A stretch of DNA of 64,000 bases from a virus. A program made the position numbers and the translations under genes. This document shows, one piece after another, positions 19,717-26,501 of this stretch. The notes below the pieces were generated by a model, which saw only the letters and a program-made list of their open reading frames with translations, was not told the DNA's origin and did not search any database. How positions within the stretch are numbered: the stretch's first letter is position 1; each line of letters starts with the position of its first letter. The stretch covers positions 1 through 64,000 of the IMG/VR virus record IMGVR_UViG_3300034101_002201. The stretch is one strand, 5' to 3'.

Positions 19717-19723
19717 GTGTATA
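19717..19723 (+). promoter_or_regulatory. GTGTATA putative late promoter (class C)
   Basis: Directly after sigma-like gene stop, upstream of 19798. Confidence 0.55.
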
Positions 19724-19797: not shown

Positions 19798-20418
19798 ATG
19801 GCATCCACATCAGCAAAACAAGCCGGTGGAAGTTCTAATAACGATGGCGGTACAGTACTTCAAGGCGGTGATGTTACTGAAAATCTAACCGATTTATCAC
19901 TTATATCCAATTCAGAAGACAAACCAACCTATGGTTCTGTAGTTGTTCAAGATACCCAATCTTCTCCAGCTACATACAGTGATCCTCATGGTGTAACCAA
20001 AGCAAAGAGTGCTGGAACATTCGCCTACACTCCACCTGCTGGTAGTGACTTTTTATTAATGGCCGCTGGCGATACAAATGCTGGAAAAATAAATGGTACA
20101 GCTTCAACGCTGTTATCAATTCCCGGCGGTGTTGCTGGTGCTGTTATCAATAAAAATCTAAAGACTACTCAGGCTGGTACATATGCTACTAGAGCATTCA
20201 ATGTTCTTGCTACTCCATCTAGCGGTAATTTCCCCGGCCTAACCAGAGGTACTGGTGCTGGCACAGAAGTTACATACCGTGCAACAAGCGGTAATTATCC
20301 AGCCATAGACGATGCTGCTACAACAAGCAGAGCAGTTCCCGGTGAATTAACCTATAGATTTGGATCACCATTACCAACACGCAATGTTGCCTACAAGGCT
20401 AAAGATAGTAACGAATAA
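19798..20418 (+). CDS. G/S/T/A-rich protein, probably virion-associated
   Basis: Strong SD; composition; C-terminal SRAVPGELTYRFG. Confidence 0.7.
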   Translation: MASTSAKQAGGSSNNDGGTVLQGGDVTENLTDLSLISNSEDKPTYGSVVVQDTQSSPATYSDPHGVTKAKSAGTFAYTPPAGSDFLLMAAGDTNAGKINGTASTLLSIPGGVAGAVINKNLKTTQAGTYATRAFNVLATPSSGNFPGLTRGTGAGTEVTYRATSGNYPAIDDAATTSRAVPGELTYRFGSPLPTRNVAYKAKDSNE

Positions 20419-20442: not shown

Positions 20443-20472
20443 AAGTGCCTTTTGAGAAATCTTAAGGCACTT
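20443..20472 (+). terminator. Stem-loop (weak terminator or processing site)
   Basis: AAGTGCCTT/AAGGCACTT inverted repeat, short T tail only. Confidence 0.5.
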
Positions 20473-20500: not shown

Positions 20501-21094
20501 ATGCTAGATATAAAAGATCCACAAAATATACCATTATTATGCAGCATTCTTGGTGCATTAGGAACTTTTTTTAGTCTGGCTTGGGTAAAGTTAATAAAGC
20601 CAACTCTAAGGTTTGTCAAAGGTCAGGAAGAAATAACAAAATCAATAGAGACTATTAGAAAAGAACTAACAACAAATGGTGGTAATAGTCTAAAAGACAC
20701 AGTAATAGATTTGCGTTCTACTATTAACAGAATGGAAAAACGTCAAAAAATAATAGAACAGCGAACCAAAGCTGCATTACATTACAATGATGTTGCACTA
20801 TTTGAAATAGATGATAGTGGAAGACTAACATGGACTAACAACAATTTTTATGAATTAACACAAGACATAGTTAGCAGTGTAGAAGGCTATGATTGGTTAA
20901 ATTATATACAAGAAGATCAAAGAGAAGAACTATTTGATGAACTAAAATCCTGTTTAGAGATGAACAGAAAATTAGCCAAAACAGTACAAACAGTAGATGG
21001 AAAAATGGTAAAATTAATCGGATTTCCATATAGGATAAACGAAAAAGAACATGGAGGATTTTTAGTCAGTATTTCAACACTCAAGGAGATATAA
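20501..21094 (+). CDS. Membrane protein: TM helix + NGGxSLKD coiled coil + PAS domain
   Basis: Hydrophobic N-terminal helix; ELTTNGGNSLKD; ALFEIDDSGRLTWTNNNFYELT...VEGYDWLNYIQEDQRE PAS signature. Confidence 0.75.
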   Translation: MLDIKDPQNIPLLCSILGALGTFFSLAWVKLIKPTLRFVKGQEEITKSIETIRKELTTNGGNSLKDTVIDLRSTINRMEKRQKIIEQRTKAALHYNDVALFEIDDSGRLTWTNNNFYELTQDIVSSVEGYDWLNYIQEDQREELFDELKSCLEMNRKLAKTVQTVDGKMVKLIGFPYRINEKEHGGFLVSISTLKEI

Positions 21095-21096
21095 CA

Positions 21097-21318
21097 ATGT
21101 CAGAAGTAAAATATGGTTCTGGTCCCTTTTCTTTAAATAGCACCGATTTAATCTCAGTTGGTAAAAATGCTCTATTGGTAGGTTTAGCAGCAGTTTTAAC
21201 ATACATTGGTGAAAACTTAGCCAAGGTTGATCTTGGCAACATGTCAGCACTAATTGTTCCAGTGGTAGCGGTTGTAATTAATACCGTTGTCAAATGGGCA
21301 AAGGATAACTCAAAGTAA
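21097..21318 (+). CDS. Holin-like small membrane protein
   Basis: 73 aa, two hydrophobic helices, basic C-terminus; AAGGAG SD. Confidence 0.6.
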   Translation: MSEVKYGSGPFSLNSTDLISVGKNALLVGLAAVLTYIGENLAKVDLGNMSALIVPVVAVVINTVVKWAKDNSK

Positions 21319-21319
21319 T

Positions 21320-22237
21320 ATGTTCAAAACACCAAAAGATTTACTAAAAGCCTACAAAGAAGGCTTCGTGGGATCATATTGTGATCCAAAAGAGTTAGAC
21401 GCTCTTCTTGGAAAGTTACCACACCCATTGTTTGGTGCGGCAGCTTATGATTTGATTGGTAGTGGCAAGGGTAAATTAGCCCTACCATTCAAGAATTTAC
21501 TTAAGTTTGATCCATCTTTTGGTCCTTCTGAAAGGCAAATCCAAGGAGATTGTGTTTCACATGCTACCCGAAATAGCGTAGATATCACAAGAAGCTGTGA
21601 AATCATAGGTGGGCAAAGAGAAGACTTTGTTGCCCGTGGTGCCACGGAAGGCATCTACGGCTCCCGTGGTCATGGTGGAGAAGGAATGACCTGTGCGGGT
21701 GCTGCAAAATTCGTCAATGAAACTGGAGGAATATTACTTCGTCAAAAGTATGGAGACTATGATTTATCAGAATATAGTGGGGTTGGTGGAAAGTGGGGCA
21801 GAAGCGGAGTACCAAAAGAGCTGGTACAGTCTGCAAAGAAACATCAAGTAAAAACTATAAGTCTTATAAATACAATCGATCAAGCTAGGGACGCATTAGC
21901 TAATGGTTATTCTATAAGCGTATGTTCTATGTTTGGATTTAGTTCTAGACGAGATAAAAATGGAATTGCTTCTAGATCTGGATCATGGGCGCACGCGATG
22001 GCTTGGATCGGAATGGATGATACTCATGAAATATATAATGAAACATTATTTTTAGTCCAAAACTCTTGGGGGGTTTGGAACAATGGTGAGAAACGACTAG
22101 ATCAACCTGACGGTAGCTTTTGGATCAGAGAAAGAGATGCGGCAGAAATGTTAGCCGCCAATGGATCTTGGGTATTTAGTGATGTAGATGGTTTTCCTCC
22201 AAGAAAAGTAACTTGGACTCTGAAAGATCAATTTTAA
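21320..22237 (+). CDS. Papain-like (C1) cysteine peptidase
   Basis: QIQGDCVSHA, WAHAM, LVQNSWG. Confidence 0.85.
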   Translation: MFKTPKDLLKAYKEGFVGSYCDPKELDALLGKLPHPLFGAAAYDLIGSGKGKLALPFKNLLKFDPSFGPSERQIQGDCVSHATRNSVDITRSCEIIGGQREDFVARGATEGIYGSRGHGGEGMTCAGAAKFVNETGGILLRQKYGDYDLSEYSGVGGKWGRSGVPKELVQSAKKHQVKTISLINTIDQARDALANGYSISVCSMFGFSSRRDKNGIASRSGSWAHAMAWIGMDDTHEIYNETLFLVQNSWGVWNNGEKRLDQPDGSFWIRERDAAEMLAANGSWVFSDVDGFPPRKVTWTLKDQF

Positions 22238-22255: not shown

Positions 22256-22489
22256 ATGCCAGTATCAACAACAGACGTAGTTACAAACGTAGTCAGCGGT
22301 TTAGAAACAATCAAAAATGGCTCTGCTGTAGTTTACTGTTGGAGAGGCGTCCCAATTAGCGGTAGTGGTAACTACCAAGCTTTAGTCAGTAACTTTGAAT
22401 ATGATAAAACCTATTCTTATACTGCTAATGAAAGTAGACTTACTAACAGATTTGACGATGTAGCATATTACTTTGACAAAAACGCATAA
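22256..22489 (+). CDS. Hypothetical protein
   Basis: AGGGGG SD; 77 aa. Confidence 0.65.
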   Translation: MPVSTTDVVTNVVSGLETIKNGSAVVYCWRGVPISGSGNYQALVSNFEYDKTYSYTANESRLTNRFDDVAYYFDKNA

Positions 22490-22494
22490 TAAAT

Positions 22495-24795
22495 ATGTCT
22501 AATATAAGAATAACAGAATTGCCAGAATCTGTTTCTGCTAGCGGTAACGATTTATTTGTTATCGTAAGTAGTGGCAATCCAGATACAACTAAAAAAATCA
22601 CTGTAGATAATTTAAAAAAACAGTTGCTATCAGTCAATAATGTTACTCAATTATCATCAGAAAGTTATTACGCCGCATCTGGATATGAATCCAATACATT
22701 ATATTTACTTACGGGTGAATATGATGATATAAAAATCGGATCTCCATTCAATCAAGCAAACTATTCACTTTTTGAAGACAATAATAATATATACTTATCT
22801 GAAAATACACAAAGTGATGTAGAAATATATCTCACATTGAGCGCAGCTGCCAAGACATCTCTCACTACATTGCCTAGAAATTTTGCTTACAGTACAGATC
22901 TTCCTTATGGGAATTTACATCTATTTTATAAGGCTTATGGAACTAATAGCTCACCGGAGGATTATGGAATAATTGGCACAAATGCACAAAAAGATGCATT
23001 ATTTAATAATTTAATAGCTTCTGGGAATGTGCCGATTGGTGGCAGTCTTAATTCACGCGCAGAACCATTGACTATTGTAAATTCAACTCAATATAAATAT
23101 ACAGGAAATTGGTCACAAGCAGATCTGAAATTTAAAATAAACAAGAAAGAATTTGGACCATATAACGTACAAGTCAGACTAAAGGGCTATAGTACTTTTA
23201 TGCCATATAGTTTCAAACCGAGTCTAAAAATTAGACCAAATAGAACTTTGTCCACAGCGGAAAGAGCAGAAATTGTTAAACAATGGAATGGCATTGAATC
23301 CTTTACTTTAAATAATCAATGGAGTAGTTCTGTTTCTGAAGTAGCACAATATAAGGTATTCAAAAGATTCGATTGCCAATGTCCTAGATCAGCTTATGCA
23401 AAATTATTTATTAAAGATCCATCCAAAAAAATTATTTCTATAAGTAGTAATACATTTACAACTAATTTACCTCACTATTTAGATAATAATGAATCAATTA
23501 AATTAGATATAGATCAATATTCAAATGAAAAATTCTATATTATTAATAGAACAGAAAAAACATTTCAACTGTCGAGAAACGGAAGTGACATAGCAATATT
23601 TTCAGACTCTACCGGTTCTCAAATAGAATATTTTGTAAACTTTGGTTTATATACTAATATAGAAGATCTTGGAAAGATACAATTTGATAGAATGTTCGGC
23701 CCCAACAATACTAAGAATGTATATGAAGTAGATCCCGTAGTTTCAAGTTCAGATTATATCTCCATGGGAAGACCAAGAGAGCTAGATGGTAATAGTTCAT
23801 TATATTCTTTACAATATGCCAGCGGGGTTTCATTTGATAGAAATGATATAAATAATTTCATATCTAAAGTATCAGACACTTCTTCAAATGCAATAACTTG
23901 GTACAATAATCTATTGACTTGCGTAAATTTGCAACAAGTATTAAGATTTTTTGCGTTGGAGTCATTCGTTTCTCAAACTGATGGGCTAGCTGCAAATAAT
24001 AATAATGGATTTTATCATTTTGATAGAAACGGAAAATTGAGTGCAATACCTTGGAGTATGGATTCTGCTGATTTTGGTGGATCATTCGGAATATCAAACA
24101 GTTATTTTTTTAACAGACTAATAACTAATCAATATACAAGAAATGCATATGTATACGAATTACAAACTCTAAGCGGTTCGTATATAGACTTTTACAATAA
24201 TGAATTTAAATCTTCTTTACTTAATACAGTAAAATATTATGATAAGTATCTTGAAGACGGACAAATCAGAATAAATGGATTGCCAACAAATACTTTAACC
24301 GATTCAATAAATACCATAACTGGTAATAGTAATGCAATTTTAAATAAGTTAAATAGCTTTTTAGATAAGCCAATACCACCAGTACTTTCTATTACACAAA
24401 ATGCTAATATTCTAACATTGAATATTTCTCCAGTAACAAAAAATGTAGACAATGATACTATATCTGTTAGCAACTATACATTAGAATATTCATATAGCCC
24501 AAAGGATGGATACTGGTTAAGCGATTTACTATGGTCTACAATAAAAAATAATGCTCAAGCAAATGTTTCAGAAACCATCAATTTAAGTCAATCTACCTAT
24601 AATCAAGGTCCAATAAGATTTAGAGTCAAAGCTACTGAAGGATTGTACTCAGAAGAAAGCAATTTTTATCAATACATACCACCAACAACAACCACCACTA
24701 CTTCTACTACAACCACATCAACGACATCTACTACAACATCTACAACAACTTCGACAACATCTACTACAACATCAACAACAACACCCGCACCATGA
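22495..24795 (+). CDS. Multidomain protein with CotH-kinase-like core, FN3-like domain and Thr/Ser tail
   Basis: VRLKG...KPSLKI, TLNN, PRSAYAKLF, GLYTNIE, IPWSMD; fibre-type N-terminus IRITELP...TKKITV. Confidence 0.7.
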   Translation: MSNIRITELPESVSASGNDLFVIVSSGNPDTTKKITVDNLKKQLLSVNNVTQLSSESYYAASGYESNTLYLLTGEYDDIKIGSPFNQANYSLFEDNNNIYLSENTQSDVEIYLTLSAAAKTSLTTLPRNFAYSTDLPYGNLHLFYKAYGTNSSPEDYGIIGTNAQKDALFNNLIASGNVPIGGSLNSRAEPLTIVNSTQYKYTGNWSQADLKFKINKKEFGPYNVQVRLKGYSTFMPYSFKPSLKIRPNRTLSTAERAEIVKQWNGIESFTLNNQWSSSVSEVAQYKVFKRFDCQCPRSAYAKLFIKDPSKKIISISSNTFTTNLPHYLDNNESIKLDIDQYSNEKFYIINRTEKTFQLSRNGSDIAIFSDSTGSQIEYFVNFGLYTNIEDLGKIQFDRMFGPNNTKNVYEVDPVVSSSDYISMGRPRELDGNSSLYSLQYASGVSFDRNDINNFISKVSDTSSNAITWYNNLLTCVNLQQVLRFFALESFVSQTDGLAANNNNGFYHFDRNGKLSAIPWSMDSADFGGSFGISNSYFFNRLITNQYTRNAYVYELQTLSGSYIDFYNNEFKSSLLNTVKYYDKYLEDGQIRINGLPTNTLTDSINTITGNSNAILNKLNSFLDKPIPPVLSITQNANILTLNISPVTKNVDNDTISVSNYTLEYSYSPKDGYWLSDLLWSTIKNNAQANVSETINLSQSTYNQGPIRFRVKATEGLYSEESNFYQYIPPTTTTTTSTTTTSTTSTTTSTTTSTTSTTTSTTTPAP
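24681..24791 (+). repeat. Low-complexity ACN/TCN repeat encoding a Thr/Ser mucin-like tract
   Basis: Encodes PTTTTTTSTTTTSTTSTTTSTTTSTTSTTTSTTTPA; ACATCTACTACAACATC occurs twice. Confidence 0.9.
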
Positions 24796-25109
24796 ATAAC
24801 ATGAACAAATATATTATTATCTTTTTGGGTTTATTGATCTTTGGATGCTCAAACAACGTGTTTTGCGTTAATCCAGAAGATATAACTAATATGTACTCCT
24901 CTTATGTAACGGAGTGGCAAGAGCAGTGCAAAACTGCATTCAACAATGCAGAAAAAGAAGTATTTAAATCTGATCCATCTCCAAAACCGGTGGTGGACAC
25001 AGATCCAGATCCAGCAAAATGCGTATGCAAAGGAACTGGAATAATTGTACAGGGCGATGGTCATAAGACTGTTTGCCCATATCATTCAAAGACCACTAAC
25101 CCGAGGTAA
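24792..25109 (+). CDS. Putative lipoprotein with C-terminal Cys motif
   Basis: Lipobox-like IFGC after hydrophobic stretch; CVCKGTG...CPYH. Confidence 0.65.
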   Translation: MNNMNKYIIIFLGLLIFGCSNNVFCVNPEDITNMYSSYVTEWQEQCKTAFNNAEKEVFKSDPSPKPVVDTDPDPAKCVCKGTGIIVQGDGHKTVCPYHSKTTNPR

Positions 25110-25111
25110 CA

Positions 25112-25405
25112 ATGTATACTAATTTAAGTATTTGGTTTTTAGTAGTAGGCGTGTTAATATTAGCATCTAATTTGATCGACTTTCCGTATTTAGTATCAAA
25201 ATTATTTACTAACTCAAAAACAAAAGTAGACACTGTAGCAACTATCAAAAAGGAAGAAGGATTTCTAGAAATAGTAAGTCTTTGGTATCAACTTAAAAGC
25301 AAGTGCGATCAATATGATTTGAAAGTAGCGTCTGATAAACTTGATGAAGTATTTCCATTATTGAATAAGGTCATAGAAGAGGATACAAATGCAAAAGTTT
25401 CTTAA
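25112..25405 (+). CDS. Membrane-anchored hypothetical protein
   Basis: N-terminal TM helix; GAGG SD. Confidence 0.7.
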   Translation: MYTNLSIWFLVVGVLILASNLIDFPYLVSKLFTNSKTKVDTVATIKKEEGFLEIVSLWYQLKSKCDQYDLKVASDKLDEVFPLLNKVIEEDTNAKVS

Positions 25406-25859
25406 CATCAAAAATATAATTGCATTAATTTTGATAGGTATTGGTTTAACATTACAATTAGCACCACTAATTCCTAATATCAAACCAAAACCAGATGTTG
25501 CTATATTAAATATAGACAAGCCAAGTGATAGGGTTCTAGCATTAGTACAATCAACATCTGATTTAATTACAGATCCAACAGATAGAGCAAAAGTTGCCAT
25601 ATATAGCCAGGAATTTGCTAACAGAGTCAAAAGTTATGATGCTCAACTTCAACAGGTGAACGACGTTCTTTCTTTATCAGCAAAAGAATTTTTTAATGGA
25701 TCAATTAATGATAAATATATAGGTTTAGATGATGGTATAATCAATTTGATAACATCTTCAGTTGGTGGTGATGATAATCATAAACTAACAGATTCAGAAA
25801 AAGCTGAATTATCAGAAGTCTTTATGGGTCTAGCTTGGGCCTTAATACAAAGAAAGTAA
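25389..25859 (+). CDS. Membrane-anchored/secreted hypothetical protein
   Basis: N-terminal TM, Pro-rich linker. Confidence 0.7.
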   Translation: MQKFLNIKNIIALILIGIGLTLQLAPLIPNIKPKPDVAILNIDKPSDRVLALVQSTSDLITDPTDRAKVAIYSQEFANRVKSYDAQLQQVNDVLSLSAKEFFNGSINDKYIGLDDGIINLITSSVGGDDNHKLTDSEKAELSEVFMGLAWALIQRK

Positions 25860-25862
25860 AGT

Positions 25863-26501
25863 ATGGCTATACCAATTTCTCAAATTAAACAAATTGTTGA
25901 TTTTATATTTTCAAAAAATGGCTATGATATTAAAAATATCAATATAAGTTTTCCACAACCTTTAGATATAAAAATTGTAAAAGATACATCAGAAAATATT
26001 ATATTGTCTTTCACAGAATCTCTTCCAAAAGTTACATGGAAAAAATTTATCAAGTTAAGTGCATATGTACAGGGCTTGACTTTGGGGAAGGATGGTGGTA
26101 CACTAAAGCTAAAGTACCTACCGGATATACAGTTTACATATGATGAAAATTCTGAATCTCTTTTTGGAAATCATTTCGATACAAGCGACATAGAAGCTCA
26201 AATAGATACTGAATATCAAGATGAAGAAAGAAACTTTTTAGCCAAAAAGTGTTTGCAGTATGGCAGCGAATGGGCTACAATAGCTAGCCAAGGCGGAACA
26301 GACTTTTCAGCCTGTGACAAATATACAAGAAGACAATTAAAAAGAGATTGCAAAGATTTTGTTACATCAAATTTGAAAGAAGATGAAGAAATACGCCACG
26401 GATCTGTAATACTGACATTTTTGCTTTTATATGTAGTATTGCCGGTTATATTAAAGTTTATACTTGAAAGATTATTCAGAAAACTTTTTAATGAATATTG
26501 A
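25863..26501 (+). CDS. Hypothetical protein with C-terminal TM helix
   Basis: VILTFLLLYVVLPVILKFIL. Confidence 0.7.
   Translation: MAIPISQIKQIVDFIFSKNGYDIKNINISFPQPLDIKIVKDTSENIILSFTESLPKVTWKKFIKLSAYVQGLTLGKDGGTLKLKYLPDIQFTYDENSESLFGNHFDTSDIEAQIDTEYQDEERNFLAKKCLQYGSEWATIASQGGTDFSACDKYTRRQLKRDCKDFVTSNLKEDEEIRHGSVILTFLLLYVVLPVILKFILERLFRKLFNEY

Follow-up and report, generated by a model that had tools for sequence, protein, structure and literature searches.

A papain-type cysteine peptidase paired with interchangeable two-TM proteins: a putative lysis module of uncultured aquatic tailed phages

How might a phage in which no muramidase or amidase can be recognised break out of its host? The question is raised by the first 64 kb of the 96,347-bp IMG/VR virus record IMGVR_UViG_3300034101_002201, which is estimated to be 60% complete; this 64,000-nucleotide stretch is referred to below as the window. 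Three genes follow one another on its plus strand: PAS197, which encodes a membrane protein ending in a PAS domain, tm73, which encodes a 73-aa protein with two transmembrane (TM) segments, and a gene for a papain-type cysteine peptidase. An initial annotation made from the letters alone had proposed that the first is an antiholin-like sensor, the second a holin and the third the endolysin. We give about an even chance to these three genes being central to a module for lysis and egress; this reading fits best because a hydrolase that lacks a signal peptide is strictly paired with a small two-TM protein that can be swapped for another, because exported partners persist beside homologues of the peptidase that are only 29-42% identical, and because no known lysin was recognised in the genomes searched.

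The pairing was followed through 80 IMG/VR loci that encode the peptidase at 63-94% identity, 78 of which are informative; the two loci with neither of the small genes concerned end at the peptidase start. All 78 have a small two-TM gene no more than 1.4 kb from the peptidase, this being tm73 in 52 loci and h62, which encodes a two-TM protein of 57-62 aa, in the other 26, and no locus has both. In the layout of the window (type A) the order is a sigma-like factor, p206, PAS197, tm73, the peptidase, p77, a variable insert, p105, p97, p156 and p212. The second layout (type B) runs glycosyltransferase, peptidase, p105-like, h62, p97-like and p156-like genes with, further along, the sigma-like factor, a p206-like gene and cc106, a TM-coiled-coil protein that lacks a PAS domain, and tm73 was not found anywhere in genomes of this type. 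Profile comparison of tm73 with h62 gave a probability of <1%, and the same was obtained for the N-terminus of PAS197 against cc106, so that by sequence both pairs appear to be analogues rather than homologues. The mutual exclusion of two unrelated small membrane proteins amounts to the non-orthologous swapping that is typical of holins.

Synteny of the complete trio in relatives, which the initial annotation had made one of its tests, was found in 49 of the 80 loci, PAS197 accompanying tm73 in 49 of its 52 loci. No PAS197 could be detected in the other three, and the one of these that was examined (L027) has a TM-coiled-coil protein without a PAS domain in the position of PAS197. Proteins of this PAS-less kind also replace PAS197 in sister clades, together with either tm73 or h62. 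The spacing within the trio is as tight as had been described, with gaps of 2 nt and then 1 nt when the peptidase is taken to begin at 21320. Its open reading frame (ORF) extends over 21287-22237, and most relatives begin at the ATG that matches 21320, which is probably the start in the window too and gives a product of 305 aa.

Two hydrophobic segments are indeed found in tm73, and across 23 sequences the mean net charge is -1.7 in the loop between them and +1.5 in the C-terminal tail. By its sequence tm73 looks like a class II holin, as it is small, has two TM domains (TMDs) with both termini predicted to lie inside (N-in/C-in), has a charged C-terminus and is encoded 1 nt from the peptidase gene. 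Its nearest ESM Atlas clusters have been named automatically as "Holin family protein" (feature similarity 0.95 and 0.94), and h62 gives weak matches to PHROG holins (E 0.006 and 0.05).

The enzyme itself bears out the description of a C1-like peptidase without a signal peptide. Gln73, Cys78, His225 and Asn248 (the last within QNSW; numbering of the 305-aa form) are invariant in 21 sequences and follow the catalytic order of family C1, and the structure model (pLDDT 69, pTM 0.76) has a two-domain papain fold. Foldseek returned 223 PDB matches at E<=0.001, which are C1A enzymes throughout among the matches listed, the best being xylellain (3OIS, E 5.5e-7) with cathepsins and ficins next. The Pfam profile Peptidase_C1 (PF00112) reaches 17.1 bits (E 0.006), below its cut-off of 20.7, and the profile of the peptidase had no match among PDB sequences. 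Neither an N-terminal hydrophobic segment nor a signal peptide is present, and about 70 residues precede the catalytic Gln.

CHAP and NlpC/P60 enzymes are established cutters of wall peptides in phage lysins, and it was with these that the peptidase had initially been compared. The papain clan includes them as well, and they share Cys-His catalysis (the CHAP domain of LysK and the N-terminal peptidases of Lysin A are examples), however the comparison does not hold, as the fold is the full two-domain C1 type, the structural neighbours are C1A enzymes instead and the CHAP and NLPC_P60 models of Pfam are silent in the genomes searched. With xylellain and other C1A peptidases such as cathepsins, ficin and actinidin the phage enzyme shares the Gln-Cys-His-Asn order and the two-domain fold (E 5.5e-7 to 1e-5), and with xylellain it has further in common the bacterial type and the N-terminal extension. 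It differs from them in being only 13-21% identical, in falling below the Pfam C1 cut-off with no PDB sequence match, in lacking a signal peptide and in its genomic setting among phage membrane proteins. A match to Lysin A does occur, which is weak and partial (E 2.6e-3, 132 columns), and in BFVD there are C1-like folds in phage proteins annotated as "Peptidoglycan binding-like" and "N acetylmuramidase", a lead only.

No gene of the block is more conserved than that of the peptidase, with 64-94% identity against 30-60% for its neighbours, and from this it is evidently under strong constraint, a point that we also count towards the lysis reading. Its family comprises at least 2288 clusters at 90% identity, none of which has a functional name. 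In two relatives (L073:4648-6690, and L074) an intein occupies the active site, within an ORF of 680 aa; the insert of about 375 aa has LAGLIDADG-like motifs and lies immediately before the catalytic Cys (...QGD, then the insert C...IKN, then CVSH...). Extreme conservation and an active-site intein are typical of essential core enzymes, and they fit the alternative that the peptidase is a processor of proteins in the cytoplasm, acting on phage proteins such as the tape measure or on host proteins at takeover, the neighbouring membrane genes then serving some other purpose. The full C1-type fold, the absent signal peptide, the N-terminal stretch before the catalytic Gln with xylellain as best structural match, and the existence of cellular homologues in apparently non-phage surroundings all point the same way. 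We nevertheless consider this alternative unlikely, since the gene is never found in a structural module and always lies among genes for exported and membrane proteins, even at 29-42% identity, since a ClpP-like protease is encoded beside the terminase gene, and since the phage would then be left without a candidate lytic enzyme.

The ClpP-like protease gene adjoins the large terminase gene in all four of the relatives described below, and from its position it is a candidate for head maturation. The protease for this step may thus have its gene outside the trio, which weakens the case for the C1 peptidase in that role. Searches for the prohead protease families S78 and S77 gave no match, the control for S77 being silent. 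In complete relatives (L188, G001:16719-20228) the ClpP-like protease is 214 aa long and its gene lies directly 5' of a large-terminase-like gene, with HNH-like and ERCC4-like genes before it.

The remark that no muramidase or amidase is recognisable in the window holds and can be extended. Six-frame searches with 14 muralytic Pfam families and PG_binding_1 covered the genome of the window, three complete relatives and one that is 88% complete, and there was no match in the five genomes apart from one 16-bit fragment with stop codons; the three complete relatives thus have no canonical endolysin recognisable by these searches. Neither the peptidase nor any other six-frame stretch in these genomes matches the 14 families or PG_binding_1. 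The searches with GH108 and GH19 carry little weight, as their controls were silent.

The company that the peptidase keeps is retained well beyond the 80 loci. Homologues at 29-42% identity (L113, L179, L173 and L183) have genes nearby for a Cys-rich exported protein or lipoprotein, for two-TM proteins and for TM-coiled-coil proteins. In L113, where the peptidase is 42% identical, the order is sigma-like factor, p206, PAS, tm73, a two-TM gene, a single-TM gene and the peptidase, and L173 and L183 represent two further lineages with the same company. In a Thermoguttaceae chromosome, a homologue with 35% identity is found where the GC (guanine plus cytosine) content is 44%; two single-TM genes flank it on the 5' side, and genes for a Cys-rich lipoprotein, a two-TM protein and a TM-coiled-coil protein come after it on the 3' side. 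Homologues of 331-346 aa that are 45-47% identical are present on two apparently chromosomal contigs (L175 and L177, GC 67%) from metagenome-assembled genomes (MAGs) of Pirellulales, and one of these is found near a ketoacyl-synthase-like gene.

What, then, is the first gene of the trio doing? In PAS197 a hydrophobic helix occupies residues 10-28 and the motif ELTTNGGNSLKD residues 55-66, and the model (pLDDT 81) has one continuous long helix from residue 9 to 94, followed by a beta-beta-alpha-alpha-alpha-beta-beta-beta PAS fold. The C-terminal domain therefore has a PAS fold as had been suggested, since it matches the PAS structures of LOV, FixL and ARNT (Foldseek, E 1e-5), and neither a kinase nor any other output or additional domain accompanies it. 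The Pfam PAS profile scores 18.7 bits on the protein of the window, under its cut-off of 22.6, and is sub-threshold in 12 of 22 close relatives as well, with distant members of the family exceeding the cut-off (P0244 with 54.9 bits for PAS_3, P0258 with 38.2). The charge bias around the helix predicts an outside N-terminus and an inside C-terminus (N-out/C-in) in all 22 close and all 56 distant members, the net charges of the flanks being -1.5 on the N-terminal and +2.8 on the C-terminal side in the 22 close sequences. Across the 56 family members N59, G60, G61, D66 and G107 are invariant and S63 and W132 nearly so.

PAS197 had been seen as an antiholin-like sensor that would hold tm73 inactive until a ligand, redox or light signal reports the state of the host, with the peptidase as a classical peptidoglycan endolysin. 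A PAS fold tethered to the membrane beside a holin-like gene is what this would require, PAS197 and tm73 are largely inherited together (49 of 52 tm73 loci), invariant positions of the close family, namely His94, Cys151 and several aromatics, could line a ligand pocket, and papain-clan enzymes of the CHAP and NlpC/P60 types do cleave wall peptides. The PAS domain is dispensable for the module, however, given the PAS-less proteins of the sister clades, and family-wide conservation is limited to NGG..D, one Gly and one Trp. Neither the LOV Cys motif (NCRFL) nor a conserved heme-ligating His is present among the 56 members, and a role as LOV or heme sensor was rejected on this ground. The architectures of known antiholins, such as RI and RIII of T4 and S107 of lambda, are unlike that of PAS197. 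With T4 RI and RIII there is shared only the idea of a separate protein that modulates holin triggering upon a signal, RI being periplasmic and RIII small and cytoplasmic, neither having a PAS domain or an N-out/C-in anchor, and no homology to PAS197 is apparent.

A better parallel, and one studied by experiment, is offered by LysF1a and LysF1b of F1-cluster mycobacteriophages, a two-TMD N-in/C-in protein and a single-TMD N-out/C-in helical protein which are both required for efficient lysis, LysF1b having basic residues after its TMD and an extended helical cytoplasmic tail (PMC13056207). PAS197 resembles LysF1b in its single N-terminal TMD, its N-out/C-in orientation, its basic C-terminal flank, its helix from 9 to 94 and its two-TMD neighbour, a likeness of architecture only. 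The order of the genes is reversed here, with the single-TMD gene first, PAS197 adds the NGGxSxKD motif and the PAS domain, and the mycobacteriophages face a different host envelope and use other lysins (Lysin A and Lysin B). We know of no sequence relationship between the two systems. By analogy, PAS197 would fit the LysF1b type, a holin-like effector (PMC13056207), better than it fits any known antiholin, and the antiholin reading together with a classical endolysin is in our view doubtful. The PAS domain is perhaps best regarded as an optional add-on within the module, for which a role in sensing is speculative.

The initial annotation had also stated that membrane proteins with the motif NGGxS(L/M)(K/R)D are neighbours of holins in other lysis cassettes. 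A profile of the N-terminal 95 residues of PAS197 searched against a library at 50% identity identified a TM-NGGxSxKD(-PAS) family of 432 representative proteins, most of them of 180-260 aa with TM, NGGxS(L/I/M)(K/R)D, helix and PAS domain, and others of 75-130 aa without the PAS domain. For 36 diverse representatives in IMG/VR, Pfam matches within two genes on either side include VanY (twice), Phage_lysozyme, Amidase_2, M15_4 and GTA_holin_3TM. In L094 the row is PAS, a three-TM gene, another gene, GTA_holin_3TM (94 bits) and Peptidase_M15_3 (79.9 bits), and in L107 the PAS gene is followed directly by a gene for a 68-aa two-TM protein. The statement is thus borne out for some members such as that of L094, but the link to lysis genes is not exclusive, and the PHROG families that most neighbours share are those of the large terminase.

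Two further settings of this family were observed. In several unrelated phages (L085-L126) the TM-NGG-PAS gene lies directly 5' of, or one gene away from, a gene encoding 410-720 aa, a position where the small terminase gene is usually found. On abundant small contigs (L127-L162) a 56-62-aa two-TM protein, a protein of 150-180 aa and a 76-aa TM-NGGSSLRD protein are encoded in a row, followed by recombination-like genes. The 150-180-aa protein was considered as an M15-like lysin, which proved unsupported as there was no significant PDB sequence match.

It is the neighbourhoods of this family that bear upon another explanation, namely that PAS197, tm73, p105, p97, p156 and p212 form an envelope-remodelling or superinfection-exclusion system and that genes elsewhere, which escaped recognition, encode the actual holin and endolysin. 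Exclusion factors are commonly lipoproteins or small membrane proteins, over half of the ORFs of these phages are without annotation, and relatives of the NGG module often adjoin genes for terminase or tail fibres without a lysin in sight. It would seem very unlikely all the same, as some members of the NGG family do lie within bona fide lysis cassettes and as the linkage of a hydrolase without signal peptide to a small two-TM gene is strict (78 of 78 loci) and persists across a non-orthologous swap, which a pair of holin and enzyme predicts and an exclusion system does not.

Other partners of the putative lysis module are predicted to be exported or anchored by a single helix. p105 has the lipobox-like sequence LIFGC, which becomes LLAGC, LLTGC or MLSGC in close relatives and is replaced in distant members by a signal anchor without Cys. 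Its family is present in 68 of the 80 peptidase loci and also adjoins the distant peptidase homologues, and by prediction p105 has the lipobox expected of the lipoprotein of a two-component spanin. One N-terminal TM helix is found in each of p97 and p156, which have no match to a spanin family and no clear coiled coil, the lipoprotein gene coming first, and the topology of p156 is probably that of a type II membrane protein. The p105 motif CxCxGxG...GDGH.T.CP.H resembles a DnaJ-type zinc knuckle, yet it occurs in a predicted periplasmic lipoprotein, and some relatives of p105 are extended by long Cys-rich tails.

When set beside the S-R-Rz/Rz1 cassette of lambda and that of phage 21 with its class II holin S21, the block is alike in coupling a small two-TM N-in/C-in protein tightly to a hydrolase without a signal peptide, in having lipoprotein and single-TM proteins nearby, and in that the small membrane protein of one sister clade may be unrelated to that of another. 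It differs in that the hydrolase is of the C1 papain type and not a muramidase, transglycosylase, amidase or LAS/CHAP/NlpC peptidase, in that the lipoprotein gene neither is embedded in nor overlaps a type II TM gene, in that the lipoprotein has a CxCxGxG...C..H motif, and in that an additional single-TM PAS protein heads the block.

If the trio is indeed the core of a lysis module, the peptidase would be made in the cytoplasm late in infection and would get to its target only once the inner membrane had been breached by a two-part holin-like system consisting of tm73 with its two TM segments and of PAS197 with its single N-out/C-in segment. It might then weaken the envelope by cutting the stem peptides of peptidoglycan or a protein on which the cohesion of the envelope depends. 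The cytoplasmic helix and PAS domain of PAS197 could tune the assembly or timing of the two-part system, and the exported Cys-rich (lipo)protein and the single-TM proteins would act in the periplasm or outer membrane, possibly in a spanin-like role or in docking the peptidase. The strongest version of this scheme, in which the C1 protease is the sole lytic enzyme of a globally abundant lineage of aquatic phages and is released through a two-part holin whose cytoplasmic PAS domain sets lysis by a metabolic, redox or light signal, we hold to be quite unlikely; if true it would represent a new class of endolysin and the first ligand-gated lysis clock of a phage.

Several observations weigh against lysis as the function of the trio. 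To our knowledge no C1-type enzyme is known to act as an endolysin, and a literature search found neither a C1-type endolysin nor a PAS-bearing lysis protein described; the peptidase is, as modelled, a full two-domain papain fold of the C1 type, it has no cell-wall-binding domain, and conservation as high as this is unusual for endolysins. tm73 has no match to any curated holin family in Pfam or PHROG. The commonest annotated neighbour of the 36 relatives of the PAS197 module is the terminase large subunit and not a lysis gene. The silence of Pfam is compatible with a muralytic enzyme of a new kind encoded by one of the numerous ORFs that have no annotation. Finally, the surroundings of the Pirellulales homologues, judged from ORF sequences only, look like those of non-phage DNA, and homologues outside phage-like settings mean that the peptidase family is not tied to lysis everywhere.

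The features of the block are collected in Table 1. The trio had been placed downstream of a GTGTATA late-type motif, which in fact precedes p206, and the heptamer occurs 10 times in the window against 9.7 expected by chance, so that its count alone is no evidence for a regulon and its role as a late promoter was rejected. A scan for sigma-70 promoters gave a result equal to that for its shuffles. p206 is always found 5' of the TM-coiled-coil(-PAS) gene and is syntenic in both layouts; the gap of 82 nt that separates it from PAS197 contains a stem-loop, which a simple terminator scan did not detect. From its sequence the stem-loop may be an attenuator or partial terminator, and it may attenuate read-through out of a highly expressed p206. 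p766 is absent or replaced in most relatives, where p77 and p105 are separated by different large genes or by no such gene.

Table 1. Coordinates within the window of the trio, its neighbouring genes and the signals preceding it
Feature	Position	Strand	Remarks
GTGTATA heptamer	19717..19723	+	75 nt 5' of p206
p206, Gly/Ser/Thr/Ala-rich protein	19798..20418	+	no Pfam/PHROG match
Stem-loop AAGTGCCTT, 12-nt loop, AAGGCACTT	20443..20472	+	read from sequence; 9-bp stem
PAS197 (197 aa)	20501..21094	+	N-terminal TM helix, NGGxS(L/I/M)(K/R)D, long helix, PAS fold
tm73, two-TM holin-like candidate, 73 aa	21097..21318	+	predicted N-in/C-in, acidic loop, basic tail
Papain-fold (C1-like) cysteine peptidase, 305 aa	21320..22237	+	alternative TTG start 21287
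p77, small conserved soluble protein	22256..22489	+	usually 3' of peptidase
p766, fibre-like, Thr/Ser-rich tail, 766 aa	22495..24795	+	variable insertion
p105, exported Cys-rich small protein	24792..25109	+	lipobox-like LIFGC, CxCxGxG...GDGH..CP.H motif
p97	25112..25405	+	one N-terminal TM helix
p156	25389..25859	+	one N-terminal TM helix, basic N-flank, exported domain of about 125 aa
p212, C-terminal hydrophobic tail anchor	25863..26501	+	window-type relatives only

The module belongs to tailed phages of aquatic habitats that form a widespread, uncultured lineage with genomes of about 160 kb. Three complete relatives with terminal repeats have 161, 167 and 173 kb, and a fourth is 88% complete. 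The GC content of the window is about 33%; its plus strand encodes ribonucleotide reductase (RNR), a split DnaE, DnaB, RecA, the sigma-like factor and many glycosyltransferases. Tail genes, which include that for a tape measure of 2374 aa, are on the minus strand of the record. Among 50,697 GenBank phage records there were no matches to the peptidase, to PAS197 or to two distant family members, and half of the split DnaE has only matches at <=32% identity in GenBank phages, hence no close cultured phage was found. Assignment of a host from MAG bins was rejected, since the bins are mutually inconsistent, with homologous contigs in Promethearchaeota, Flavobacteriales, SAR202, Dehalococcoidia, Alphaproteobacteria and Pirellulales. 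The tape measure (L083:725-7846; genome 82722-89846, minus strand) matches PhageMin_Tail with 91 bits and includes a weak ADP-ribosyltransferase-like stretch (E 0.005), and an ORF of 3955 aa follows it.

Descriptions of phage lysis have so far drawn on a small number of muralytic enzyme families. If papain-type lysis is true of these phages, which are very common in freshwater and the sea, the catalogue of endolysin chemistries would grow, enzybiotic work would gain a new class of enzyme, and it would follow that automated annotation misses the lysis genes of an abundant group of phages. Furthermore the TM-NGGxSxKD(-PAS) proteins are a widespread and uncharacterised family of phage membrane proteins, the PAS-bearing members of which offer a testable case of a possible intracellular input to the timing of lysis.

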